Source: an uncultured Pseudomonadales bacterium
Lineage (GTDB): Bacteria; Patescibacteriota; Microgenomatia; UBA1400; PJMF01
Length of the DNA: 25,510 nucleotides
NCBI GenBank assembly: GCA_964493195.1
Contig: CAZBMX010000001.1
Location: forward strand, 1 to 25,510
Reading direction: 5' to 3'
The notes under the pieces are model-generated. The model did no database searches, was not told where the DNA came from, and saw only the letters and a list, made by a program, of their open reading frames with translations. Made by a program: the position numbers and the translations under genes. This document shows positions 6,808 through 24,893 of the stretch, piece by piece. Every line of letters starts with the position of its first letter. Positions within the stretch are counted from its first letter, which is position 1.

Positions 6808-9306
6808 ATGAATTTATTCCCCATTGAGGCAGCGGCTTGTGACAATCAAAAGAATGTTTACCCAGATTTAGCTTGGTATCTTAGAGACGAAGACTTCACA
6901 ATAACCGATATTACTTCTGGGTTTTTGGATCGTCACACTCGTATACTTGCCAAACTCAGACAAAAAGTTGTTCAAGCACTGATAGGAGTAGATTCAAAGT
7001 TGAGCCGTGAGGTGCTGCCAGTGGGATCGCTGCTAGAATTGGGTGCATTGAGTGAGGAAGATGCGGCAGAGATTGCGCTGAAGCGTTGTATCGCAAAGGT
7101 CTGTGTCTATCTTGATCAAGCAGCTTTTGGCATTATGTTAGCAGGCTTAAATCCTGGCAAAATGAACCTCCCTCTTTTTTTGTCGGCATTGATAAGTAGA
7201 ATTGGTTTCCAGCGATTAGAAATGTACTTGTTAAATCAGGCTGCGTCTGATACGGGTACAGCGTTTGCACGACAGGAGAGGCAATACAAACCCCACCTTA
7301 GTTTGTTGCATCAATTGTTAGCTGATAAAATTCCTGACGATAAGATTGCTTTACTGACACAGCAGTATGACAATTTGTACACCGCAGATACACGGTCGAA
7401 CTCAAAGTTGAGAATGATTTGGGCTCCAGTAATTGCGATAGGATCATTGGTTGATCGCGGACGATATCTTTCGGCAATTATTCTTCCCCTACTCGCCGTA
7501 TATCTCTACATGCAAGGTCCTTTGACTTATGTACAGTCAGATAGAAAAAGGCGGTTGGGATTCAGAGTAGTGGCCTCTGCAGAAGATAAAAATGGAAGGA
7601 AAAAGCTGGTTGACGAACACACTGCTATGACGCTGAAACTTGGTTTTAAGTACGATATTGGCACTTTTCTGTTTGTACTTGAATTCTTGTTGGGGATGAA
7701 TTTTGCCCAAGCCTTTTCTAGTTATATAGCAACCACTCAGGGACTCGCGCCATTTAACGCAATGCTGACGCAGCATAGAGAGAAAGTTAATGCAATAGAA
7801 GCTGTTGAACTGATTAGTAAGTTATTTTCCATTCTCAAAATGCATCCATTGATATTTAATCAAGCCATGTGGGATGCAAGTAGGGCCAGCAAGCAGGATT
7901 GGCCTGAGGTGCCAAGAGTACCTGTGTCAATCCAGAATGGGGTGATCATCGAACACACATCTGGTCAGACTGCAGTGCATGCAGCAAGTCCTGACACGCT
8001 ACCAACGACCCATATCGTTGAGTCTAGAACGGTTAAATTTCTTAGAGAACGCTCTGGTACGGGAAAGTCGCTCTCTCTGCAGGCAATTGCTGGACTTATC
8101 GACTCAGATACAACTCGAGTTTATTTGGTTGAAGATGGCAAAGTGCAGCCGTCAATTACAATTGCATCACTCATTGAATATCGACAAAGAATTTTTCATC
8201 CTGAAATTTTCATTAAGGATCCAAACCGATCGATAGTTGATATATGTAATGAGTTATTTTTGTTAGATAGCAGAGCAATAAAGTTACGCAATGATCTCGA
8301 GAAAAATGGCTTCACGCAATCCGAAATTGAGAGAATACTGCAATGCGCAAGCGATTTGTTGCAAGAAGCAATGATCGCCAACAATAGCTATGCGTTATTG
8401 CACACAGAGGTGTCTCAAGAAAGAAAAGCAGTTTTATGGAAGTTAGTTCGAACACTGCTTGATGAAAGATTGCGCTGGGCAGACGAGAGATTTAGGTCAG
8501 CTGGTAACCTGGATTTAGAGAACATTGGATCAAGAAAATATTCTACATTGAGTCGAGGCCAAAAGGCAAGATTTTTGGTTAAACTTTGTCTGGAGGCAGC
8601 CAGACACTTCCCAATCCAGTTGATCTTGCTTGATGAACCATTTGCTGGTTTAGATGAACTCAAGGATGAGAAATCTGATGCTCAAACTATTGTAAATTTC
8701 GAGGAGCAGCTTAAAGATATTGGGGCATTGCTCTCGTTGGACTATAATGGAATTGCACCTGCTTTGCTCATGGCTGAACACTCTACGTCAGTGAACGAGG
8801 TGCTCATACAAAAAACGTCTCTAATTCAGCGAGTTGTGCAGTTTGTTCCACATTCGGAAGAGCGTAACAGATTGATTGATTTAATATCACAAAGCAATGA
8901 TCCTCGAGGTGATCTATTGTTTGAATTGCGCGAAGAAGTGCTGACAAACCTGCGAAGGCCTAATCAAAGAACGTTTAGAAGGTATTTTCCTAACCCCATG
9001 GGCTTGTCGAGTTTTGACATTAGTGTTTTCAATAACGAACGCATTACTTGGTACAAGCAAATTTTGCAACCGACTAATGAAGAATTCCAAGCTTTCTCTG
9101 ATTCGGTAATGTCAGTTTTTCCAAGTGCTTTATATACAAATCTTTCAGCAACAACCCAGACAATGAATGAGTTTGAACGTGATCCCGATGCAGTACGAGA
9201 TGCTGCAATAGCATTAGGTCTGAGCATACTAGAGCTTGATTACCTTTTAAGTGCCGAGCTTGGTGCTCATCGAATGTCTGGAATTTTTGAATGTACTGAT
9301 GACTAG
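6808..9306 (+). CDS. Divergent ABC-type protein: N-terminal membrane region plus degenerate nucleotide-binding domain
   Basis: Hydrophobic segments (LSAIILPLLAVYLYM, IGTFLFVLEFLLGMNF), Walker A-like ERSGTGKS (8047-8070), signature LSRGQ (8548-8562), Walker B/D-loop LILLDEPFAGLD (from 8620) and H-loop MAEHS. Visibly AT-richer than the flanking uvr genes. Confidence 0.7.
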   Translation: MNLFPIEAAACDNQKNVYPDLAWYLRDEDFTITDITSGFLDRHTRILAKLRQKVVQALIGVDSKLSREVLPVGSLLELGALSEEDAAEIALKRCIAKVCVYLDQAAFGIMLAGLNPGKMNLPLFLSALISRIGFQRLEMYLLNQAASDTGTAFARQERQYKPHLSLLHQLLADKIPDDKIALLTQQYDNLYTADTRSNSKLRMIWAPVIAIGSLVDRGRYLSAIILPLLAVYLYMQGPLTYVQSDRKRRLGFRVVASAEDKNGRKKLVDEHTAMTLKLGFKYDIGTFLFVLEFLLGMNFAQAFSSYIATTQGLAPFNAMLTQHREKVNAIEAVELISKLFSILKMHPLIFNQAMWDASRASKQDWPEVPRVPVSIQNGVIIEHTSGQTAVHAASPDTLPTTHIVESRTVKFLRERSGTGKSLSLQAIAGLIDSDTTRVYLVEDGKVQPSITIASLIEYRQRIFHPEIFIKDPNRSIVDICNELFLLDSRAIKLRNDLEKNGFTQSEIERILQCASDLLQEAMIANNSYALLHTEVSQERKAVLWKLVRTLLDERLRWADERFRSAGNLDLENIGSRKYSTLSRGQKARFLVKLCLEAARHFPIQLILLDEPFAGLDELKDEKSDAQTIVNFEEQLKDIGALLSLDYNGIAPALLMAEHSTSVNEVLIQKTSLIQRVVQFVPHSEERNRLIDLISQSNDPRGDLLFELREEVLTNLRRPNQRTFRRYFPNPMGLSSFDISVFNNERITWYKQILQPTNEEFQAFSDSVMSVFPSALYTNLSATTQTMNEFERDPDAVRDAAIALGLSILELDYLLSAELGAHRMSGIFECTDD

Positions 9307-15583: not shown

Positions 15584-15679
15584 CTGTAAAAAAAGATGAC
15601 AATCAAGGTACCTGAAGATCCACTGAGAATGAACGCAAATACGGGAGCTTCATACATTGATTGTCATCTTTTTTTACAG
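15584..15679 (+). ncRNA. Candidate structured ncRNA / hairpin element E1 (unassigned family)
   Basis: A perfect 23-bp inverted repeat (15584-15606 / 15657-15679) encloses GTACCTGAAG (15608-15617), N30 and CTTCATAC (15648-15655). Homologous to E2 at 24669-24770. The right arm contains a T7 tract. Confidence 0.65.
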
Positions 15680-17491
15680 CAGCGCCCTCCCCGTCATCGA
15701 CTCAGGCTTTGGTATGCCCATGACATGCAGCATAGTCGGAGCCACGTCTGCCAAAATGCCGGTAGGGAGCATGACTGGCTTGTTGGCATACTGATTTCCA
15801 ATGATGATGAATGGCACGGGGTAGGTTGAGTGTTCGGTATCAACTTCACCAGTTGTGTTGCTAATCATTTCTTCCACATTTCCGTGATCTGCGGTGATGA
15901 GTACAACACCATTTTGGGTGAGGACATGCGAAACAATTTGGCCGACTACTTCATCAAGAATCTCGCAAGCTCGGATCGCTGCCTCGAGATTGCCGGTGTG
16001 TCCAACCATGTCTCCGTTGCAAAGATTCGCGATCACTACATCGTATGTACCCTGTTGTAATCGGCTGATCATTTCTGATGCGATCTCGCGCGAACTCATT
16101 TCTGGCGCTTGATCATATGATTTGACTCCTTTGGAAGGCAGGATTACTCGATCTTCGCCAGGGTAGAGCACTTCCTGCTGGCCATTCATGTAGTAGGTGA
16201 CAAATCGCTCCTTTTCCGTTTCTGTCATGCGCAGCTGACGCAATCCTTGAGTCGCAAAAACTTTGCAGAGTGGATTCTTGACATTCTGGGGAGGAAACGC
16301 GACGTCCGTGGGCAAATTTTCTTCATATCGAGTCATGGTCACAAAGTACAAGTCGTTAATTGTTTTTTTACGGTAGAAAGTCTGCACCGATTCCGGCTGT
16401 TTCTGAATGTTTGTTTTTTCGTATTTTTCTGAGTACGGATCGAAAGCTGTGTGAATGATCCCTTGCTCGAAATCGGGCATCACGAAGGCGCGTGTGAGCT
16501 CGCGCGGTCGGTCAACCCGATAGTTGAAGAAAATAACTGCATCATGTTCTTCGATTGTGCGATGTGAGCCGTCGGTGTTGCAGATGCTAATGGGTTCAAT
16601 AAACTCATCCGTTATGCCCTTTGTGTACTGATCTTGTAGCACTGCAATTGGGTCCACCACGCAAGTGTTTGGACTGCCAAGTGTCAGAGCATCATACGCG
16701 CGCTCGATTCTGTCCCAGCGCATATCGCGATCCATGGCGTAATACCGACCCATTAGTGTTGCGATTTCGCCGACTCCCAAGCTGACGCACGCATCCATGA
16801 TCTGGCGAATGTAGTTGATACCTGAAGTTGGCGGCGAGTCGCGGCCGTCCGTGAAACCGTGAATGTACACTTTGAGTAAGCCTTGTGTTTTGCAGAAGTT
16901 GAGCAGTGCGTACAAATGCTCAATATTTGAGTGCACGCCCCCCGAGCCGATGAGACCCATCAAGTGCAGGGTGGAGTTGTTCCGTTTAACGTGTGCTACG
17001 GCGTTCAAAAATGCCGGTGTATTGCCAAAACTGCCATCAGCAATCGACATGTTAATCCGCGGTAGGTCTTGGTACACGATATGGCCCGCTCCAATGTTGA
17101 GGTGTCCTGTCTCTGTGTTGCCGTCCTCTCCTCTGGGCAGTCCAACTGCCTCGCCGCTCGCAGTCAATTGCGTGTGCGGATACGAGAGCCAATAGCGATC
17201 CATGTTGGGGGTCTTGGCACGCATGATTGCATTGCCTGCGTTGTTGGGGCCGATGCCCCAGCCATCTAAAACTAGGAGTACGGCAGGTTTGGGGCCATTG
17301 TATTGCTGACGCTGAAACGTTTCATTAAATGGCAGGCTGGTCACAATCGGAGTGATTCCCGCAGTTGCAGAAGTTTCTGCGACCGGAGCTGCAACAGCTG
17401 GCTCAGACGGCACTTGACCATCAGGCATAGTGATAACCTGTGGTTGGACGGGTGCCTGTGGGATGGGCGGCAGATTTGAGGTGTCAAACAT
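15674..17491 (-). CDS. gpmI: 2,3-bisphosphoglycerate-independent phosphoglycerate mutase
   Basis: VLLVLDGWG, GNTETGHLNIGAG, GRYYAMDRD, FNYRVDRPRE, NGDMVGHTG, TADHGNVE and TEHST; ~66-aa Pro/Ala-rich N-terminal extension. Confidence 0.95.
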   Translation of the reverse strand: MFDTSNLPPIPQAPVQPQVITMPDGQVPSEPAVAAPVAETSATAGITPIVTSLPFNETFQRQQYNGPKPAVLLVLDGWGIGPNNAGNAIMRAKTPNMDRYWLSYPHTQLTASGEAVGLPRGEDGNTETGHLNIGAGHIVYQDLPRINMSIADGSFGNTPAFLNAVAHVKRNNSTLHLMGLIGSGGVHSNIEHLYALLNFCKTQGLLKVYIHGFTDGRDSPPTSGINYIRQIMDACVSLGVGEIATLMGRYYAMDRDMRWDRIERAYDALTLGSPNTCVVDPIAVLQDQYTKGITDEFIEPISICNTDGSHRTIEEHDAVIFFNYRVDRPRELTRAFVMPDFEQGIIHTAFDPYSEKYEKTNIQKQPESVQTFYRKKTINDLYFVTMTRYEENLPTDVAFPPQNVKNPLCKVFATQGLRQLRMTETEKERFVTYYMNGQQEVLYPGEDRVILPSKGVKSYDQAPEMSSREIASEMISRLQQGTYDVVIANLCNGDMVGHTGNLEAAIRACEILDEVVGQIVSHVLTQNGVVLITADHGNVEEMISNTTGEVDTEHSTYPVPFIIIGNQYANKPVMLPTGILADVAPTMLHVMGIPKPESMTGRALL

Positions 17492-17512
17492 AACTGAGCA
17501 GTTCTGTGCAAC

Positions 17513-18796
17513 CTAGGCAGCAGCAGCGGGTTCTGCTTGCTGGCTTTGGCTGATTTCGTGGGCAATTTGCAGTAACCGGTTGTACTTGGCTACGCGCTCG
17601 CCGCGATTGGGTGGGCCAAACTTGGTGTACTCGGCACCCACACCAACGGCAAAATCTGCGATGATGTCGTCATTGGTCTCGCCGCTGCGGTGTGAGACGA
17701 TGACCTGCCAGCCAGCCGCTTTGGCGTGGCGAATGACTTCGACGACTTCGCTGATGGTGCCGATTTGATTTGGCTTGACCATGAGGGTGTTGCAGGTTTT
17801 GTTGGCAATGGCTTGCTCGGTTTTTTTGAGGTTGGTGGCGAGAAAACTGTCACCCACGACTTTAGTAGTTTCACCCATCTCGGCAGTCATTTGTTTCCAG
17901 CTGTCGAGGTCATCGTCGTGGAATGGATCCTCAATATAAAACACATGATACAGATTGCGCAGTCGTTTGTAGTACTCGAGCATTTCTTGGCTGCTGTATG
18001 GCTGTTGGCGGTCCTTGAGTTTGTACTTGCCGTTCTCAAACAGTTCGTTTGCCTCAGCATCGATGCCAAAGAATAGATCTTGGGCGAAGGTGTATGGCGT
18101 GGCTTTGACTGCTTCAATTAAAATCTCAAACACGTCGCTGTTGTTGTACAAGTTGGGGGTGAAGCCGCCAATAATACCCGTTGAGTGGATGGCACCCTTC
18201 ATTGCCAGAATTTCATCTAGCTTGTGATAGAACGTCACGGCCATGTTGAGAGAAGTATTGAAGTCTATGTGCGTAGCGGGGATGATGTCAAACTCTTGCA
18301 AATCAAGGTTGTCCGCTCCGTGTGCGCCACCGTTGACCATGGTGTAAATGCAGCTTGGCATGGTTAGACTATTGGTGAGCTGATATTTTTCGAGTACATA
18401 GTAGTACAGGGGCAAATTTTGTTTCAGGGCTCCCGCCTTGAGTACAGCTTGTGACACAGCCAAGATAGCGTTTGCACCCAGTTTAGATTTGTCCTCAGTT
18501 CCATCAAGTTGAGTGAGGAGTGTGTCAATTTCCTCCTGTTGGGATGGATCCTTGCCAATAATTTGGGGGGCGATCACGGTATTGATATTGTTGACGGCCT
18601 GCAACACTCCCCTGCCCGCCATGTGGTTGGGGTCTTTGTCTCGCAACTCGTGAGCTTCATATTTACCCACCGAAGTGCCAGAGGGCACACTGGTGGCAAC
18701 AATCTGCCCGCTGTCGAGCCATAGTGTTGCCTCGATGGTTGGAATGGCGCGCGAATCAAGTACTTCGCGTGCATAGATGCCTTGGATGACTGCCAT
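17513..18796 (-). CDS. eno: Enolase (the catalytic GDEGG motif reads GIIGG)
   Basis: AREVLDSRAIPTIE, VPSGTSVG, NGGAHG..QEF, IEDPF, VVGD, VKPNQIGT, SHRSGET and GERVAKYNRLL; RBS AAGGAG upstream. Confidence 0.93.
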   Translation of the reverse strand: MAVIQGIYAREVLDSRAIPTIEATLWLDSGQIVATSVPSGTSVGKYEAHELRDKDPNHMAGRGVLQAVNNINTVIAPQIIGKDPSQQEEIDTLLTQLDGTEDKSKLGANAILAVSQAVLKAGALKQNLPLYYYVLEKYQLTNSLTMPSCIYTMVNGGAHGADNLDLQEFDIIPATHIDFNTSLNMAVTFYHKLDEILAMKGAIHSTGIIGGFTPNLYNNSDVFEILIEAVKATPYTFAQDLFFGIDAEANELFENGKYKLKDRQQPYSSQEMLEYYKRLRNLYHVFYIEDPFHDDDLDSWKQMTAEMGETTKVVGDSFLATNLKKTEQAIANKTCNTLMVKPNQIGTISEVVEVIRHAKAAGWQVIVSHRSGETNDDIIADFAVGVGAEYTKFGPPNRGERVAKYNRLLQIAHEISQSQQAEPAAAA

Positions 18797-18804
18797 AAAA
18801 CTCC

Positions 18805-20643
18805 TTATGATCTGGTTGGTGCCGTAAACAGCGAGCGTTCCGCTTCCATAATACTGGCTTTGGCCACAGATGCAACGTTGGGGCGAACGATGACGCCGTG
18901 GACTCCTTTGCGTACTGCAGTGGTGAGCGCCTGATCATCAAAATGACGCAAATACACTACGGTTTTCAACTGACCAAGTGGCGTGTGTTGCTTGACGATG
19001 TGGTCAAGCAGGTATTCGTACACTGCGTGTGGAAAGCTGTACGCCTCCTGCAATTCAGGTCGATCGGCGTCAATACCAAGGCTGAGGGCCAACACGCTGG
19101 AAACGTTTACCACGATGCCAGCTAACTCACTGAGTGGATATGCAGCAAAATTGATACAGTTTTCTGGAGTGTTGAGCTGTAGCCAGATGCCGGCAAAGTG
19201 CGGGCTGCGCAGATTCCGCTCCTTGACCTGCAGTACGAGCCGCCGAGCTTCCTCAGGGCTACGGACGAAGGGAAACAGAATGCCAAGTGGCGCAGTTGCC
19301 TGCTCCAGTGCATCGCGAAACGTGTCGAGCTGGAAGTTGAGAAGCTCGGGGTACTGCAATTGCTTGAGAGCACCGCGCATGCCGATGGCTGGGTTTGTCT
19401 CTGCCTCGGTGTAGCTAGCGCTTGATCGCAGACCTAAAAGTTCAGCAGAAGTGAAGTTTTCTGTCCGAAACAAAATGAGCCGACCCTTCGCCTCGCGCTG
19501 GTATGCACTGATCGTGTGCAGCATGGCTTGGCGAAGCGCATCCCGGCTTGGACTGTTCAACAGGTGTTCTGGATGGGTACCGAACTGAGCCAGATAGTAC
19601 TCACTGCGGAGTACTCCAACTCCGTCAACTGGTTGCGCCAGGTACTCCCCAGCTTTGTCCGGGTTGCCGGCGGTAATGTAGAGTTGGGTGACCGTTTTGC
19701 CAGATGGGTGCTTGACTACGGGGGCTGCTGGTTCACTGTCTGTTTCGGTGTCGCTGACGCCGGTTATATACAGCGTGTTGTCTGCTTTGATCCACGTGAT
19801 ACTGACTTGCTCGAGGGTTTGCCGCTTGAGTCGTAGCACCAGATGAGCGAGCGCACGAGCTTCAGCTTCGCTCAGTGGCTGTTGCTCTTTTTCTTCTGAA
19901 GTCAGTTTTTCTGTGATGAGTTCGCCGCTACCCTGAATGAGTTTATGGCGCTGCTGATGCGGCCGTTGTTCAACGACTGCCATGGTGCGTACATCCACGG
20001 CGACTTCTGCGCCGGCAGCCATTTCGGGTTCAGCAAAACTACCCCAGACAGCTGAGATATGCACACGCGTTTTATCGTGTGTACCCGGTTTTTGTGAGTA
20101 GGCTGTGCCGGAGGCAACTGCTTGGGGTTGGCGGGTGATCAGAATAGCGGTTGGTCCGACAATGTCTGATACTGATCGGTGACGGTGCGTGTTGTGTACG
20201 AGCTGGTGGGCGATTAGTGCTGACCACACGTCTAGCACCGCCTGGATGAGCGTGGCATCCCCCATCACCAGCGGAACTTTAGTGTCGGTTAGTTCGCTGG
20301 CATAGACTTGCACGGTATCAGCTTGCAGGTACTCATGGTAGGCAGCTGAAAGTGTGTGCAGAAATGTTTGATCCAGATGAACTTGTTTGAGTAGGTGCAC
20401 TATATGTTCGCGCACCGCATCTATCTGTAGGTTGGCTCGATTACGCTGCAGCTGTTCAATTTTGAGATGGAACTGAGCATCCTGGGCCAGCTGGATGAGT
20501 GTTGTAGAAGGAATACACAGACTAGCAGGGATGGGCAGTTGCTGTTCCCAAAGTGATCCGAGTAACACACCAGAAGCACCAATGCTGCTGCGGGCAGCAA
20601 TGGGTAGCTCAGCTAATTGGTAAATTATATGTCTGGCAGGCAC
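18805..20643 (-). CDS. Degenerate PEP synthase (PpsA)-like protein: PPDK N-terminal-like plus PEP-utiliser C-terminal domain, no phosphohistidine domain
   Basis: VDGVGVLRSEY, EAETNPAIGMRG and LFPFVRS resemble the PEP-binding barrel, and the N-terminus resembles the ATP-grasp domain. GTG start 6 nt after TATGAT. Confidence 0.75.
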   Translation of the reverse strand: MPARHIIYQLAELPIAARSSIGASGVLLGSLWEQQLPIPASLCIPSTTLIQLAQDAQFHLKIEQLQRNRANLQIDAVREHIVHLLKQVHLDQTFLHTLSAAYHEYLQADTVQVYASELTDTKVPLVMGDATLIQAVLDVWSALIAHQLVHNTHRHRSVSDIVGPTAILITRQPQAVASGTAYSQKPGTHDKTRVHISAVWGSFAEPEMAAGAEVAVDVRTMAVVEQRPHQQRHKLIQGSGELITEKLTSEEKEQQPLSEAEARALAHLVLRLKRQTLEQVSITWIKADNTLYITGVSDTETDSEPAAPVVKHPSGKTVTQLYITAGNPDKAGEYLAQPVDGVGVLRSEYYLAQFGTHPEHLLNSPSRDALRQAMLHTISAYQREAKGRLILFRTENFTSAELLGLRSSASYTEAETNPAIGMRGALKQLQYPELLNFQLDTFRDALEQATAPLGILFPFVRSPEEARRLVLQVKERNLRSPHFAGIWLQLNTPENCINFAAYPLSELAGIVVNVSSVLALSLGIDADRPELQEAYSFPHAVYEYLLDHIVKQHTPLGQLKTVVYLRHFDDQALTTAVRKGVHGVIVRPNVASVAKASIMEAERSLFTAPTRS

Positions 20644-20651
20644 GATTTCAT

Positions 20652-20680
20652 CATAGCGCAGATGTGGTGGTTGCGCTATG
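20652..20680. terminator. 9-bp hairpin between the PGI/PMI stop and the PpsA-like start (terminator-like or regulatory)
   Basis: CATAGCGCA (20652-20660) / TGCGCTATG (20672-20680) with an 11-nt loop. There is no U-tract on the minus strand, and it overlaps the putative -10 of the PpsA-like gene. Confidence 0.35.
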
Positions 20681-20689
20681 GGTTGTTGT

Positions 20690-21775
20690 TTACTTCGCCC
20701 TCTTCTTCAACTCCCCCTTAAACCAATCCACCCAAGGAATCGGTGCTGGGTCCTGGTTGTACAGCATAGCCAGGTAAAAGTTGGCATAGGCGCCAAAGGT
20801 GATGAGTTCGAATGCCTGCCCGAGCTTAGTGTGGCTTTCCAATGCCAGCTGTGTGTGCTCGATGTGATTTTGATCCAGAACTTCTGCAGTCAAGTCCATC
20901 CGCAGGCTATTGTTGGGTTGGTAGAGGTTCGATTTGATCAGAACATACAGTAAATTCAGCGCGTTTGTATCAGGATTCTTCAGCCCTTCCATCAGGTGGT
21001 GGTTTAGCTCTGGTACCACTCGGTACTCGGAGTAGGTCTTGGCATTTTCGTTGAGCTGATTAGCAAAGACATGCCCAGAGCCTTCCAGGTGTTCGTACAC
21101 GGTGACGATTGGAATCCGGCTTACCATCTGGAACGCGAGCAGTTTGGCAATATTGTCCGCTTGGGGGACATGGACGCTGGCCTTGAGGTGCATGCTGGCA
21201 ATGGCTTGCAAAACCGATTGGTACAGATCATCGGTGATGCTGAGCAAACCAGTTTGGGCGAACAAGGCAATCTGGCCAAAGACCGAGTACCCGAGCGCCA
21301 TCCGGGGTTGGTTGGATGGGTTGTACTTGGCCTCGAAAACCAGGGTTGGGCAGCTATGCTCGGCTAGCAGCTCCGCTAGTGTGCCGCCTGTGGTGATGCC
21401 GACGACTTTGGCACCTTTTTTGAGCGCGTCTTGGGCGGCAGCGATTGTTTCTTCCGTTGCACCAGAGTAGCTGGAGGCAATCACAAGAGTGCGCTGATTC
21501 ACAAATCGCGGTAGGCTGTAATCTGGAACCAGTAGCACTGGTAAACGCAGTTCGTCCTTGAACACAGTTTGAATCACGTGTGTGCCCAAGGCAGATCCAC
21601 CCATGCCGGCTACCACCACGTTGTCAACATCCCGGAAGCTTGGATCAATGTGCACACTCCGAGCGGTGTCCCACACGTGTTGGACTTGATCACTGAGTTG
21701 TTCGACGGAACCAAGCACATTGGACTTGTCAACTGCACTGATGGCGGCGCGGTCTTCGAGGATGGAGGTGGGCAT
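20690..21775 (-). CDS. Bifunctional phosphoglucose/phosphomannose isomerase (SIS domains)
   Basis: VVVAGMGGSALG, IASSYSGATEET, QPRMALGY, QLNENAK and PELNHHLMEG. Confidence 0.9.
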   Translation of the reverse strand: MPTSILEDRAAISAVDKSNVLGSVEQLSDQVQHVWDTARSVHIDPSFRDVDNVVVAGMGGSALGTHVIQTVFKDELRLPVLLVPDYSLPRFVNQRTLVIASSYSGATEETIAAAQDALKKGAKVVGITTGGTLAELLAEHSCPTLVFEAKYNPSNQPRMALGYSVFGQIALFAQTGLLSITDDLYQSVLQAIASMHLKASVHVPQADNIAKLLAFQMVSRIPIVTVYEHLEGSGHVFANQLNENAKTYSEYRVVPELNHHLMEGLKNPDTNALNLLYVLIKSNLYQPNNSLRMDLTAEVLDQNHIEHTQLALESHTKLGQAFELITFGAYANFYLAMLYNQDPAPIPWVDWFKGELKKRAK

Positions 21776-21777
21776 GG

Positions 21778-23148
21778 TTAGCTTTCTGTGACTGCTGATT
21801 TAATGAGTGCGAGCACTTCATCTCGCTTCTCTTCCATCATAACTTTGTCTTTAGCTTCAAGATTAAGTCGAACAAGTGGCTCAGTGTTTGAAGCACGAAC
21901 ATTAAAGTTGCAGTCATCGTAGACAATGGACACGCCATCGACGTGAAGCACCTCTTTGGCAGCCGGACCATAGATTTCTTCAAGTTTTTTGAATAAGCCC
22001 GCACTGTCCATAACGCCGCGCGTATTGATCTCTCCAGAAATGAAATATTGGCTTTCCATCGCATCAACGACCGTAGCCAATGTTTCGTCACTCTGACTAA
22101 ACATTTCGAGCAAGTACATCATCGGCGCCAGTCCCGAATCGCAAAAATAAAAGTCTTTAAAGTAATAATGTCCAGTGACTTCACCGCCAAACACAGCATC
22201 TTCCTGCATCATTCTTGCTTTGATGTACGAGTGCCCAACGCGATTGTATAGGGCTGTTCCACCAAGTTTTGTAATTGTGTCTGGCACCGCATGAGATGCG
22301 CGAATGTCGTAGACAATTGTGGCATTTGGTTGCTTTTGTAAAAAGTACTTTGAGAGTATTGCAGTCATGAAATCGCCTGACACAAAACGACCGGTGGAAT
22401 CGATGCAAAAAAATCTGTCGCCATCCGGGTCGAAGGCAAATCCATATGCAGCTTTTTCTGCGGGGACTCTAGTTTGGAGTTCTCGACGATTTTCCTCCTG
22501 GAGCGGATCTCCCCCATGGTTGGGAAAGGTGCCATCAGGCTCGAAATACATGGGGACTAGTTCGAGTTGTGGGATGTGTTTTGCCAAAGCAGTCAAGGAG
22601 GGACCTACCATGCCATTGGCAGTGTCAGCTAGCACCTTACATGGTTTGATTTTGTTTACATCAACAAGGGAGAGTATTTTGGTTACAAACTCTTCCATCA
22701 AATCCCAGTGCTCAAGGTTGCCTTTTTCAGCAACATCCGCCGGAAGATCGTCTTGTAAAATTGCTTCTCTCATTGCATCAATTCCGTCACTGCCTGTGAG
22801 TAGTTGTGGTATTTGTCTTACCATTTTGAAGCCGTTGTACTCTTTTGGGTTGTGACTTGCGGTCACCATAATTCCAGGTAGTTTTTTAGTTGCACAGGCA
22901 AAATAGTACATGTCTGTTGAAACCATACCAACATCTATGACATGAACACCGACAGCTCTCAGGGTATCAATCAAGATTTGACTCAATGTGGGACTTGAAA
23001 CTCTGCCATCTCGACCAACGATCACAATCGTTGGCGAAATCGCTTTGGCAAAGGCTCGCGCTATTGCGGCGGCAGTCTCATCAAACAGGTTTTTGCCGTA
23101 CACTCCTCTAATGTCATATGCTTTGAAGATTGTGGAGTCAACGTTCAT
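21778..23148 (-). CDS. Phosphomannomutase/phosphoglucomutase (alpha-D-phosphohexomutase)
   Basis: IFKAYDIRG, VTASHNPKEYNG, FDPDGDRF, GGEVTGHYYF and VRASNTEPLVRLNLEA. Start placed at ATG 23148 after an AAAGG RBS. Confidence 0.93.
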   Translation of the reverse strand: MNVDSTIFKAYDIRGVYGKNLFDETAAAIARAFAKAISPTIVIVGRDGRVSSPTLSQILIDTLRAVGVHVIDVGMVSTDMYYFACATKKLPGIMVTASHNPKEYNGFKMVRQIPQLLTGSDGIDAMREAILQDDLPADVAEKGNLEHWDLMEEFVTKILSLVDVNKIKPCKVLADTANGMVGPSLTALAKHIPQLELVPMYFEPDGTFPNHGGDPLQEENRRELQTRVPAEKAAYGFAFDPDGDRFFCIDSTGRFVSGDFMTAILSKYFLQKQPNATIVYDIRASHAVPDTITKLGGTALYNRVGHSYIKARMMQEDAVFGGEVTGHYYFKDFYFCDSGLAPMMYLLEMFSQSDETLATVVDAMESQYFISGEINTRGVMDSAGLFKKLEEIYGPAAKEVLHVDGVSIVYDDCNFNVRASNTEPLVRLNLEAKDKVMMEEKRDEVLALIKSAVTES

Positions 23149-23201
23149 GAGCGCCTTTCTGCAGTATGAAAAAAGTATGACAAAGTATGATCCCAACTAC
23201 T

Positions 23202-23900
23202 TTACTCCTGTATAGTCAATAAATCAAGTTCTTGGGCTAGGGTAAGTGTAGCTTTCCCGGTCTTGTGTGTCCAGTCTATATCGAGCAGTTTGGAGTGCAG
23301 GCGCAGCAGTTTCTCCAGACTAAACAGCGCTGCTTGCTTCTTGAGCTGTGCCACCGCAAACGGATGTCCAGCCACACTGCCTGCGTCTTTGACAATCAGC
23401 AACTGCCGAACCTGCCGGCACAGCATGATGAAACAAAACTGGTCGCTGTCCGCAGCAATTGATTGCTGCAGCAACTCAAGCTTTTTTTTGATGGGCTGTG
23501 TAGTGCCGATGGACTGCAGCCAAGAAAATAAACTGGAGCTGGCTTTGCAGTGTTCGACTTTGGCTCCCTGAAACTGCTTGAGCATGGTGGGTGTCAGATC
23601 GCGCTTCTCCCACAACACAACGGGTATAGAACTTTTGGCAACTGCGGCAATTAGGCTGTTTTTGCGGCTAGATCGTGGCAGTGAGTGCAGTTCTTCCAAC
23701 ACAATCAGCTTGTCAGTGCCAAACAGGTCACTGCTTCCCAGCTGTGTTTCCAACTCTGCTTCTGTCAAATTTTTTGCTTGCAGGCGTACCACGGTGACGC
23801 CATTAGCCCGTGCTTGATCCAGCAGCTGAGCCAAGATCGTGCGCGAGGCGACCGTATGTTCGCCATGCAAGATGGTGATAGGAGTTGTTTCGCGCGGCAT
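23202..23900 (-). CDS. holA: DNA polymerase III delta subunit-like protein (compact form)
   Basis: ITILHGE, DLFGTDKLIVLE and C-terminal HPFAVAQLKKQAALFSLEKLLRLHSKLLDID..KTG. ATG 23900 directly follows the upstream stop (TAA-T-ATG). Confidence 0.75.
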   Translation of the reverse strand: MPRETTPITILHGEHTVASRTILAQLLDQARANGVTVVRLQAKNLTEAELETQLGSSDLFGTDKLIVLEELHSLPRSSRKNSLIAAVAKSSIPVVLWEKRDLTPTMLKQFQGAKVEHCKASSSLFSWLQSIGTTQPIKKKLELLQQSIAADSDQFCFIMLCRQVRQLLIVKDAGSVAGHPFAVAQLKKQAALFSLEKLLRLHSKLLDIDWTHKTGKATLTLAQELDLLTIQE

Positions 23901-23901
23901 A

Positions 23902-24612
23902 TTAATCTTCTGCAACTTGAGTGCGTTTGAGCCACCCTCGCTGTTTAGGATACTCTGGACAGTGAGTGCGGACAATATCCCAAAACGCTTTGGAGTGATT
24001 CATTTGCTTGCGATGCGCCAGCTCGTGTATCAGCACATACTCGATGACAGCAGGCGGGTGATGTACCAGCCGCCAGTTGAAGGATAGAGCGCCCGTACTG
24101 CTGCAGCTGCCCCAGCGGGTTTTTTGCTCACGCACATGCACAGTTGAGTACGTCACTCCCATTTGTTTGGCAAGCACGGGCAGTCGGTGGCTCAGGTACT
24201 CAGTGATAGTTTTTTTGTACAGTCGATCAAGGTGTGTGCGTAGAGATTTTTTGATGGCTGGTTGGTTTTTGGGGAGTGCCGGGTCGTGGACGGGGTTAAA
24301 CAAGGCGGTCGTATCGGTGAGTCGGAGCCCCAGTTTGTGCGCTGCGCTGTATTCAATTTGTATTGGGTAGGTTTTGCCAAACAGCAGAATCGTGTCCGCA
24401 GGCACGGTGCTAGTGTGTTTGATGGCATTTGCTTTGGCCTGAGTGATCCAGGCCTGGTTCTGCGCCACAAAACGGTCGATCAGGAACCTGGGTGTGAACC
24501 GAGGACTGGTCACGACGACCTCGCCGGTGCGCGACACCGAAATCTTGATGCGCCGGGCGCGTGCGGTTACTTTGTGCGTGTATGGAATCGTTGGTGCGCT
24601 GTTTGGCCACAT
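23902..24612 (-). CDS. YgjP/DUF45-family SprT-like zinc metallohydrolase
   Basis: ARARRIKISV, QKTRWGSCS, LSFNWRL and HExxH in YVLIHELAHRKQMNHSKAFW. Confidence 0.9.
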   Translation of the reverse strand: MWPNSAPTIPYTHKVTARARRIKISVSRTGEVVVTSPRFTPRFLIDRFVAQNQAWITQAKANAIKHTSTVPADTILLFGKTYPIQIEYSAAHKLGLRLTDTTALFNPVHDPALPKNQPAIKKSLRTHLDRLYKKTITEYLSHRLPVLAKQMGVTYSTVHVREQKTRWGSCSSTGALSFNWRLVHHPPAVIEYVLIHELAHRKQMNHSKAFWDIVRTHCPEYPKQRGWLKRTQVAED

Positions 24613-24668
24613 TGCACTTGTATGGTATCACGCTAACTACAGGAGCAATTTTTGCTCAGGTAGGTTAA

Positions 24669-24770
24669 AATATCTGCAGTTTTGTGCTGAGGAGAGTACC
24701 TGAAGGCTCACCGAGTGAGAGTGCTAACGTGGAGACTTCATACTCGACGAAGTACAAAACTGCAGATATT
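24669..24770 (+). ncRNA. Candidate structured ncRNA / hairpin element E2 (same family as E1), abutting tRNA-Leu
   Basis: 20-bp inverted repeat (24669-24688 / 24751-24770, one G-U pair on the + strand), GAGGA/GACGA internal loop, then GTACCTGAAG (24696-24705), N30 and CTTCATAC (24736-24743). Confidence 0.65.
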
Positions 24771-24851
24771 GCCGAAGTGGCGGAATGGTATACGCGCACG
24801 ACTTAGAATCGTGTGGAGCAATCCTTGGAGGTTCGAGTCCTCTCTTCGGCA
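24771..24851 (+). tRNA. tRNA-Leu(UAG), CCA not encoded
   Basis: Acceptor stem GCCGAAG/CTTCGGC plus discriminator A, D-loop GGAATGGTA, anticodon arm CACGA-CTTAGAA-TCGTG, long variable arm, T-arm GGAGG-TTCGAGT-CCTCT. Followed by CTG rather than CCA. Confidence 0.96.
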
Positions 24852-24893
24852 CTGGTGATTTTCTTAGTAAGTGAATTTCACAAAAGATTAAAA

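Follow-up and report, generated by a model that had tools for sequence, protein, structure and literature searches.

A 25,510-nt stretch of contig CAZBMX010000001.1, here called the window, carries two long hairpins, E1 (15584..15679, + strand) and E2 (24669..24770, + strand), which share an interior and have unrelated outer stems. The question raised by this locus is what kind of element such a pair represents. Both hairpins belong to a family, here termed family A, with seven copies in the genome of the window (G000; 1.05 Mb in 176 contigs, 47% GC, 87% complete). Family A is a clade-restricted dispersed repeat that is RNA-constrained, absent from Rfam, and new. Our preferred reading, held at roughly even confidence, is that of an RNA-constrained cis or cassette-like hairpin, the stems of which have grown by template switching.

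The preliminary description of the window had reported that both hairpins contain, on the + strand, the same pair of words separated by exactly 30 nt. The word pair was re-found at 15608-15655, the 48-nt conserved core of E1, and at 24696-24743, the 48-nt core of E2 as first delimited, with 0 matches in 100 dinucleotide shuffles. Re-counting of the 30-nt inserts gave the same figures as before (14/30 positions identical, transitions accounting for 13/16 differences). Compared with shuffled sequences, the folds have z-scores of -7.1 (E1) and -8.0 (E2), and the covariance model R1 scores E1 with 97.5 bits and E2 with 106.7 bits. The outer stems are also as described, comprising 23 Watson-Crick pairs without interruption in E1 (5' arm 15584..15606 and 3' arm 15657..15679, both +), and 19 Watson-Crick pairs plus one G.U in E2.

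Copies of family A were located by a relaxed word search and two covariance models. A loose word pattern applied to 60 relatives gave matches that were nearly all due to chance, and therefore the covariance models were used instead. In this way the homology of E1 and E2 was extended to a family, with five further copies in G000: E3 (C133:1986-2082), E4 (C32:975-1071), E5 (C49:4664-4754), E6 (C21:5092-5190), and E7 (C60:5511-5601, equal to L104:1512-1602). The outer stems, 12 to 24 pairs long, are unrelated from copy to copy. Neither tandem arrays of family A nor a conserved open reading frame (ORF) within it was found, and an nhmmer search for an origin from another gene of G000 returned just the seven copies. 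A small ORF behind the GAGGAG word was considered and rejected because it has no start codon and one copy contains an in-frame stop. The entire apical domain is missing from E7, which is closed as a perfect UGAAGGCUC/GAGCCUUCA hairpin; this copy retains the tandem G.A base, has three G.U pairs in the middle stem, and sits 10 nt past an aminoacyl-tRNA synthetase stop codon, immediately 5' of a TACAAT box.

The search of this genome and its relatives that had been proposed for the pattern yielded single copies in the congener G002, in G146, which belongs to another genus, and at locus L072 of a relative assembled in Logan. The G146 copy is diverged, with the UGAAG/CUUCA helix changed to UGAGG/CCUCA. 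The second congener, G001, has no copy, nor was one found in ~260 further genomes (137 from the same family and 126 representing 18 other families of its order). Scanning 185,579 GTDB species representatives, JGI metagenomes, and IMG/VR for the exact pattern gave a contig of G002 as the sole match. The tRNA-Leu leaders of 28 other genera do not contain the hairpin, which rules out a general feature of such leaders. The earlier statement that the hairpins match no known RNA family was supported by Rfam 15, which at gathering threshold recognised only tRNA in the window. E-value scans of E1 and E2 gave only chance-level miRNA and snoRNA matches (E 0.2 or worse, far below gathering), and the scan of E7 gave nothing.

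The preliminary description had placed the conserved part in an apical segment of ~48 nt. This core is real, but the conserved unit is longer, ~64 nt, with GAGGAG(A) before the core and YCGACGAR after it in E2, E4, E6, E7, and the L072 copy. In E2 the extended module occupies 24689..24752 (+). The two added segments fold as two tandem G.A motifs around a G-C pair, followed inwards by a GUA/UAC helix, a CC bulge, a UGAAG/CUUCA helix, and a CUC/GAG helix; the rest of the apical rod consists of a CA bulge, a G.U-rich helix, and an A-N-Y-G tetraloop. The apical register proposed at first fits well, with 90.8% of cells paired. An alternative register (pairs 6-27, 7-26, 8-25, 10-23, 11-22, 13-20, and 14-19) is at least as good in eight copies, with 91.9% of structure cells paired and five pairs showing changes on both sides.

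All statistics of family A rest on 8-10 copies that are related to one another, so that the counts are not independent. Among the eight aligned copies, the observed covariation was reached in 0/500 column shuffles, and the pairing fell to 28-46% when the 3' partners were shifted by 1-3 columns. Three columns alternate between C and U (or G-C and G.U) opposite an invariant G, and the core cells contain 14 G.U vs ~3 A.C. Compensatory change in the core and a strand-specific G.U pattern, both of which had been described from E1 and E2, are typical of a single-stranded fold. In seven of the ten copies the more stable fold is that of the sense strand, with a mean advantage of 5.2 kcal/mol, and the margin is 7.5-12.9 kcal/mol in the copies retaining the tandem G.A motifs and in the G146 copy. 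The claim that the fold works on the + strand only is correct for E2 (-49.3 vs -38.4 kcal/mol) and incorrect for E1 (-40.2 vs -41.9 kcal/mol). Together, compensatory changes, G.U excess, and sense-strand advantage are suggestive of a single-stranded, RNA-type fold; given the small sample of related copies, they are not conclusive.

E2 lies in the 5' leader of a tRNA-Leu gene (anticodon UAG, 24771..24852, +) that starts one base after its 3' arm, and the L072 copy is its orthologue. Between the two, the basal core is identical at 52/52 positions, while the apex (8/13, with a compensatory change from A-U to U-A), the arms (19/31), and the upstream leader (11/40) have diverged, and the YgjP-like proteins encoded beside the two copies are only 64% identical. 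Because the basal core is unchanged among these diverged parts, the comparison argues for purifying selection on the module at the tRNA-Leu site. Recent exchange between lineages is another possible source of the identity. Over the whole family, core similarity is highest for orthologous pairs (0.90 and 0.83), and paralogues range from 0.56 to 0.84. At L072, inspection of the tRNA leader showed a -10-like box, TACAAT, ~30 nt 5' of the element, and since the box precedes the element, transcripts starting there would contain both element and tRNA. In E2, the outer end of the 5' arm overlaps a similar -10-like box (TAAAAT, 24666..24671, +), which by inspection aligns with TACAAT in G002; a consensus scan found no full sigma-70 site there. 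Among Logan contigs of other samples, one skips E2 (window 24653-24767), and in another tRNA-Leu leader the 3' core word is unchanged but the arm differs.

Orthologous sites of six copies were tested in sister species, and five out of the six were empty. At the sites of E1, E2, E4, E5, and E6 in G001 and G002, the entire hairpin is missing together with its arms. The Logan relative has the tRNA-Leu copy and lacks those of the E1 and E3 sites; a Woesebacteria metagenome-assembled genome, compared at these two sites, lacks both as well. At the E3 site, both G000 and G002 carry a copy, with homologous arms. The core between these arms is inverted, matching at 40/48 positions after reverse-complementing and at 31/48 without, and the flanks are colinear (upstream flank 128/160). 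Three species of one genus possess 0, 1, and 7 copies. Judged from these site comparisons, copies are gained and lost between closely related species. Logan contigs from other wastewater runs include an E1 variant with 13 changes in the 3' half and flanks that are ~97% identical (window 15602-15671), and such contigs often end inside hairpins. Close strains were not found in protein clusters.

The outer helices of the ten copies are almost purely Watson-Crick, with 196 such pairs, 9 G.U, 3 C.A, and 5 other mismatches over 213 positions, and they are mosaics of native and new sequence. The 5' arm of E1 is orthologous to an A-rich sequence of the empty site in G002 (~19/24 identical, where the flanking genes have 76-78% identity). 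The 3' arm combines ~15 inner nt that are new and repeat the 5' arm in inverted form with 6-7 outer nt that are native and include the stop codon TAA (15674..15676, - strand) of the iPGM gene gpmI (ORF 15674..17491, -; domains iPGM_N and Metalloenzyme). The case of E2 is the reverse for the inner arm, which agrees with the native tRNA leader, whereas at the outer end the 5' arm overlaps the conserved -10-like box and the complement adjoining the tRNA is new. The 5' arm of E5 takes in the end of a gene, namely its five final codons and its stop codon. The basal G.A motif was converted in E5 to a perfect GAGGAGAG/CUCUCCUC duplex, and in E3 and the G002 copy to CCUCGUG/CACGAGG, and is lost altogether in E1.

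According to three published accounts, template switching between inverted-repeat arms homogenises and expands the arms and inverts the spacer, leaving perfect reverse-complement arms, concerted multi-nucleotide arm changes, and expansion into the flanks (PMC8604942, PMC8794818, PMC13100816). Homogenised arms with multi-nucleotide changes in concert on both sides, expansion from the flank, and an inverted spacer are all found in family A. Because this is the same set of outcomes as that published, the outer stems and the flip look like products of template switching and not like a designed carrier helix. The preliminary description had regarded a long carrier helix as a selected part; this idea is weakened because the stem takes in a stop codon, the end of a coding sequence, and a -10 box. 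Template switching is nevertheless a mutational process and not an element family: it accounts for the stems and the flip of family A, and leaves the conserved, imperfect inner module and the spread to new sites unexplained. We also considered insertion of the core into the loops of pre-existing terminator hairpins, and rejected it since the orthologous empty sites have no long hairpin, that of E1 showing only a weak 7-bp inverted repeat.

In the reading that we prefer, family A would consist of two layers. The first is the inner module of ~64 nt, conserved in sequence and single-strand fold, which is most likely read as RNA in neighbouring transcripts, in 3' untranslated regions (UTRs) past stop codons and in the 5' leader of tRNA-Leu(UAG). 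It is probably a recognition surface for a putative protein or RNase. The second layer is the long, copy-specific outer stem. Template switching between the arms during replication would create and lengthen this stem and keep its pairing perfect, and would also copy native flank into the opposite arm and sometimes flip the core. In RNA, a duplex of 17-24 bp would stop exonucleases arriving from the 3' end or serve as a substrate of RNase III, and at E2 RNase P would set the 3' end. The module might thereby be released or stabilised wherever it is inserted, and the copies would spread by a copy-and-paste route. Eight of the ten copies are sense to the flanking transcription: five of these start 0-50 nt past, or overlapping, a stop codon, two lie in a tRNA-Leu leader, and the G002 copy lies just 5' of recG.

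Several results weigh against this reading. The remaining two copies, E1 and E3, are antisense to their neighbours and are without a sense-strand folding advantage, and the orientation bias of 8/10 (p=0.11) and the excess of G.U over C.A in the outer stems (9 vs 3, p=0.15) are not significant alone. Scans detected no promoter or terminator signal common to the copies, and none of the public RNA runs carries sequence of this DNA. The search also identified no partner protein and no mechanism of spread. RNase III (PF14622) was not found in the 87%-complete G000, yet it is present in G001, G002, G146, and G008, the last from another genus; the missing gene is likely an assembly gap, and its status bears on any RNase III model. 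Template switching alone can moreover give seemingly compensatory double changes without selection at the RNA level (PMC8794818).

A possible but doubtful alternative is a selfish element at the DNA level, that is, a small non-autonomous mobile palindrome served by a trans-acting enzyme, either a transposase or a recombinase (HUH/RAYT or attC/integrase type), that would recognise the core when folded as a hairpin in single-stranded DNA, any RNA being incidental. The gain and loss of copies between congeners, the core flipped at one shared site, the almost wholly Watson-Crick arms, and the lack of a common promoter are consistent with it, and enzymes recognising single-stranded DNA also predict strand-specific folding. 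A further hint at shared machinery comes from a second family with the same architecture, family B, which occurs in G000 and G002 and not in G001. Nonetheless, a Y1 transposase was detected only in the element-free G001, no reverse transcriptase was detected, and conserved terminal repeats and direct target duplications are absent by inspection. The frequent G.U-type wobble pairs are weak in DNA, and neither the basal core identical at 52/52 positions in a tRNA leader across species with unalignable flanks nor the sense bias of 8/10 copies fits this explanation.

The option of a dispersed non-autonomous or REP-like element (repetitive extragenic palindrome) is the best fit among those offered by the preliminary description. 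Family A shares with REP/REPIN-RAYT systems the short intergenic hairpins, a strand-specific single-strand recognition (putative in family A), and the lineage-specific distribution. However, REP/REPIN elements have a conserved stem and 5' tetranucleotide and an accompanying RAYT gene, whereas the arms of family A have no common sequence. The Y1 transposase domain PF01797 is absent from G000 (87% complete) and G002, with its sole match in G001, which has no element; REP/RAYT was ruled out since the carrier genomes have no such transposase. Miniature inverted-repeat transposable elements do not agree with an outermost arm sequence that differs in each copy and with the absence, by inspection, of flanking direct repeats. 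Integron attC sites, which carry conserved R''/R' boxes at the hairpin base and stand in cassette arrays beside intI, do not agree with variable hairpin bases and with single copies dispersed among housekeeping genes; tyrosine recombinases are present, untyped. Retrons were ruled out by the absence of the reverse transcriptase domain PF00078 from G000, G001, and G002.

TIGR arrays resemble family A in their occurrence in contexts of phages and of the Candidate Phyla Radiation (CPR), and in units closed by variable yet palindromic stems (PMC12045711). They are, however, tandem arrays beside a Tas (Nop-domain) gene, with variable spacers between tiny box C/D motifs (PMC12045711), whereas the copies of family A are dispersed and their interior is conserved. 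TIGR-Tas was set aside because no PF01798 (Nop) match was found at E<=0.1, although a divergent Tas may escape the Pfam model. Hammerhead, box C/D, and K-turn motifs read by eye are not conserved across the copies.

ERIC/IRU and Correia/NEMIS are transcribed intergenic palindromic repeats of proteobacteria, ~100-150 nt long and multi-copy, that form long hairpins. They are located in intergenic regions or 3' UTRs in either orientation, encode no protein, and vary in presence at orthologous sites; transcribed copies are reported to be substrates of RNase III or RNase E and to alter mRNA stability. Family A likewise consists of multi-copy intergenic hairpins variably present at orthologous sites. 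ERIC and Correia are conserved along their full length, including arms or terminal inverted repeats, whereas in family A, which belongs to a CPR bacterium and has a tiny copy number (0-7), conservation is restricted to the inner ~64 nt, and each copy has arms of local origin unrelated to those of the others. RNase III processing hairpins, such as the R sites of phage T7 and the intervening sequences of rRNA, are long duplexes with conserved internal loops situated between genes, which permit excision from transcripts of any kind and leave the 3' end protected by a stem. RNase III sites are not dispersed presence/absence repeats, and RNase III was not found in the incomplete assembly of G000.

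It is unlikely that the copies are independently transcribed, trans-acting small RNAs (sRNAs), that is, rods of ~100 nt similar to 6S RNA, signal recognition particle (SRP) RNA, or Y RNA, with their own promoters and a protein on the apical 48 nt. A conserved and covarying core would be expected of such RNAs, and RNase P could free E2, given that the tRNA begins at the next base. A promoter-like site on the + strand ~37 nt before E1 was found as well, although at chance level. However, a copy number of 0, 1, and 7 within one genus and the mostly empty orthologous sites (five out of six) do not support an SRP- or 6S-like rod, which had been among the options first listed. A paralogous sRNA gene family, listed with it, is not supported either: the empty sites, the flipped core, one copy without its apical domain, and others with basal motifs turned into perfect pairs speak against it, most copies are 3' UTR-like, the copies have no promoter motif in common, coding sequence and stop codons lie within the arms, and Rfam gave no match. 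A self-cleaving or self-processing ribozyme module in variable closing stems, comparable to twister with its variable P1, is very improbable, since the multi-copy, patchy rod with conserved internal loops and bulges inside a free-sequence stem would suit it, but no Rfam ribozyme matched even at E<=10, no pseudoknot or multi-helix junction is evident, and one copy has lost its whole apical domain while keeping the basal part.

Family B was found by a scan for perfect inverted repeats, in which most of the longest hairpins of G000 belonged to families A and B. It possesses a conserved interior of 82-85 nt with two covarying helices, and copy-specific perfect stems of 17-28 bp. G000 carries six copies, three of them in tandem: four at loci L100-L103 (C23:7577-7717, C114:3236-3375, C41:6530-6651, and C151:467-582) and two weaker tandem copies (C23:7365-7423 and 7468-7565). 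Seven copies were found in G002, three in G008, and none in G001, and the family B loci gave no match in Rfam. Some copies adjoin tRNA genes, namely tRNA-Arg and, in G002, the leader of tRNA-Asp. The shared architecture of the two unrelated families fits a general process by which any insert that folds strongly would acquire stems around it, and their common presence in G000 and G002 and absence from G001 may reflect shared machinery. A more far-reaching proposal, which we regard as speculative and rather unlikely, is that both families are unrecognised mobile RNA cassettes of CPR, in which a conserved protein-binding module, wherever it is copied, would gain a long processing or insulating stem templated from local DNA; RNase III or RNase P could then excise it from any host transcript, and it would act in trans with a putative partner common to the carrier genomes.

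Few repeats and non-coding RNAs have been described from the small genomes of CPR, or Patescibacteria. In family A, two evolutionary layers can be separated, an inner module under selection for its single-stranded fold and outer stems with the published signatures of template switching, and the family offers a clean natural case for the proposal that RNA hairpins are created and maintained by template switching. At the same time, it cautions against taking perfect stems and concerted double changes as proof of selection on RNA. If the inner module does bind a protein, it would give entry to new RNA biology of an uncultured lineage.

The genes neighbouring the copies are housekeeping genes, including lexA, iPGM, and genes for a YgjP-like peptidase, a histidine kinase, and a nucleotidyl transferase, and further tyrS/recG, an aminoacyl-tRNA synthetase gene, and a Band-7 gene adjoining groES. 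No candidate partner gene adjoins the family A copies, in agreement with the earlier statement that no cognate protein gene is evident near E1 and E2.

The nearest named proteins of G000 belong to Woesebacteria and Pacebacteria; the organism is for this reason placed, by its protein similarities, in the Patescibacteria (CPR), of Microgenomates type. According to public DNA runs, its habitat is wastewater and activated sludge. The contig C4 of G002 (CAZSJW010000004.1) is titled 'uncultured Pseudomonadales bacterium', and its genes, like those of the window, are closest to Woesebacteria and Pacebacteria entries; the title is probably a mis-assignment. Runs of 100 N are present in four contigs of G000 (C3:4268-4367, C10:11339-11438, C12:3989-4088, and C64:1429-1528), may be scaffold gaps, and produce spurious long palindromes in naive inverted-repeat scans. 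Between tyrS and recG (L006, ~1720-1830), we found a small conserved ORF for a hydrophobic peptide of ~35 aa (MKK..RKALLT..), which is also present in G002 (L039) and in the Logan relative (L084). It is followed by an ordinary intrinsic terminator, and therefore classical terminators exist in this organism.

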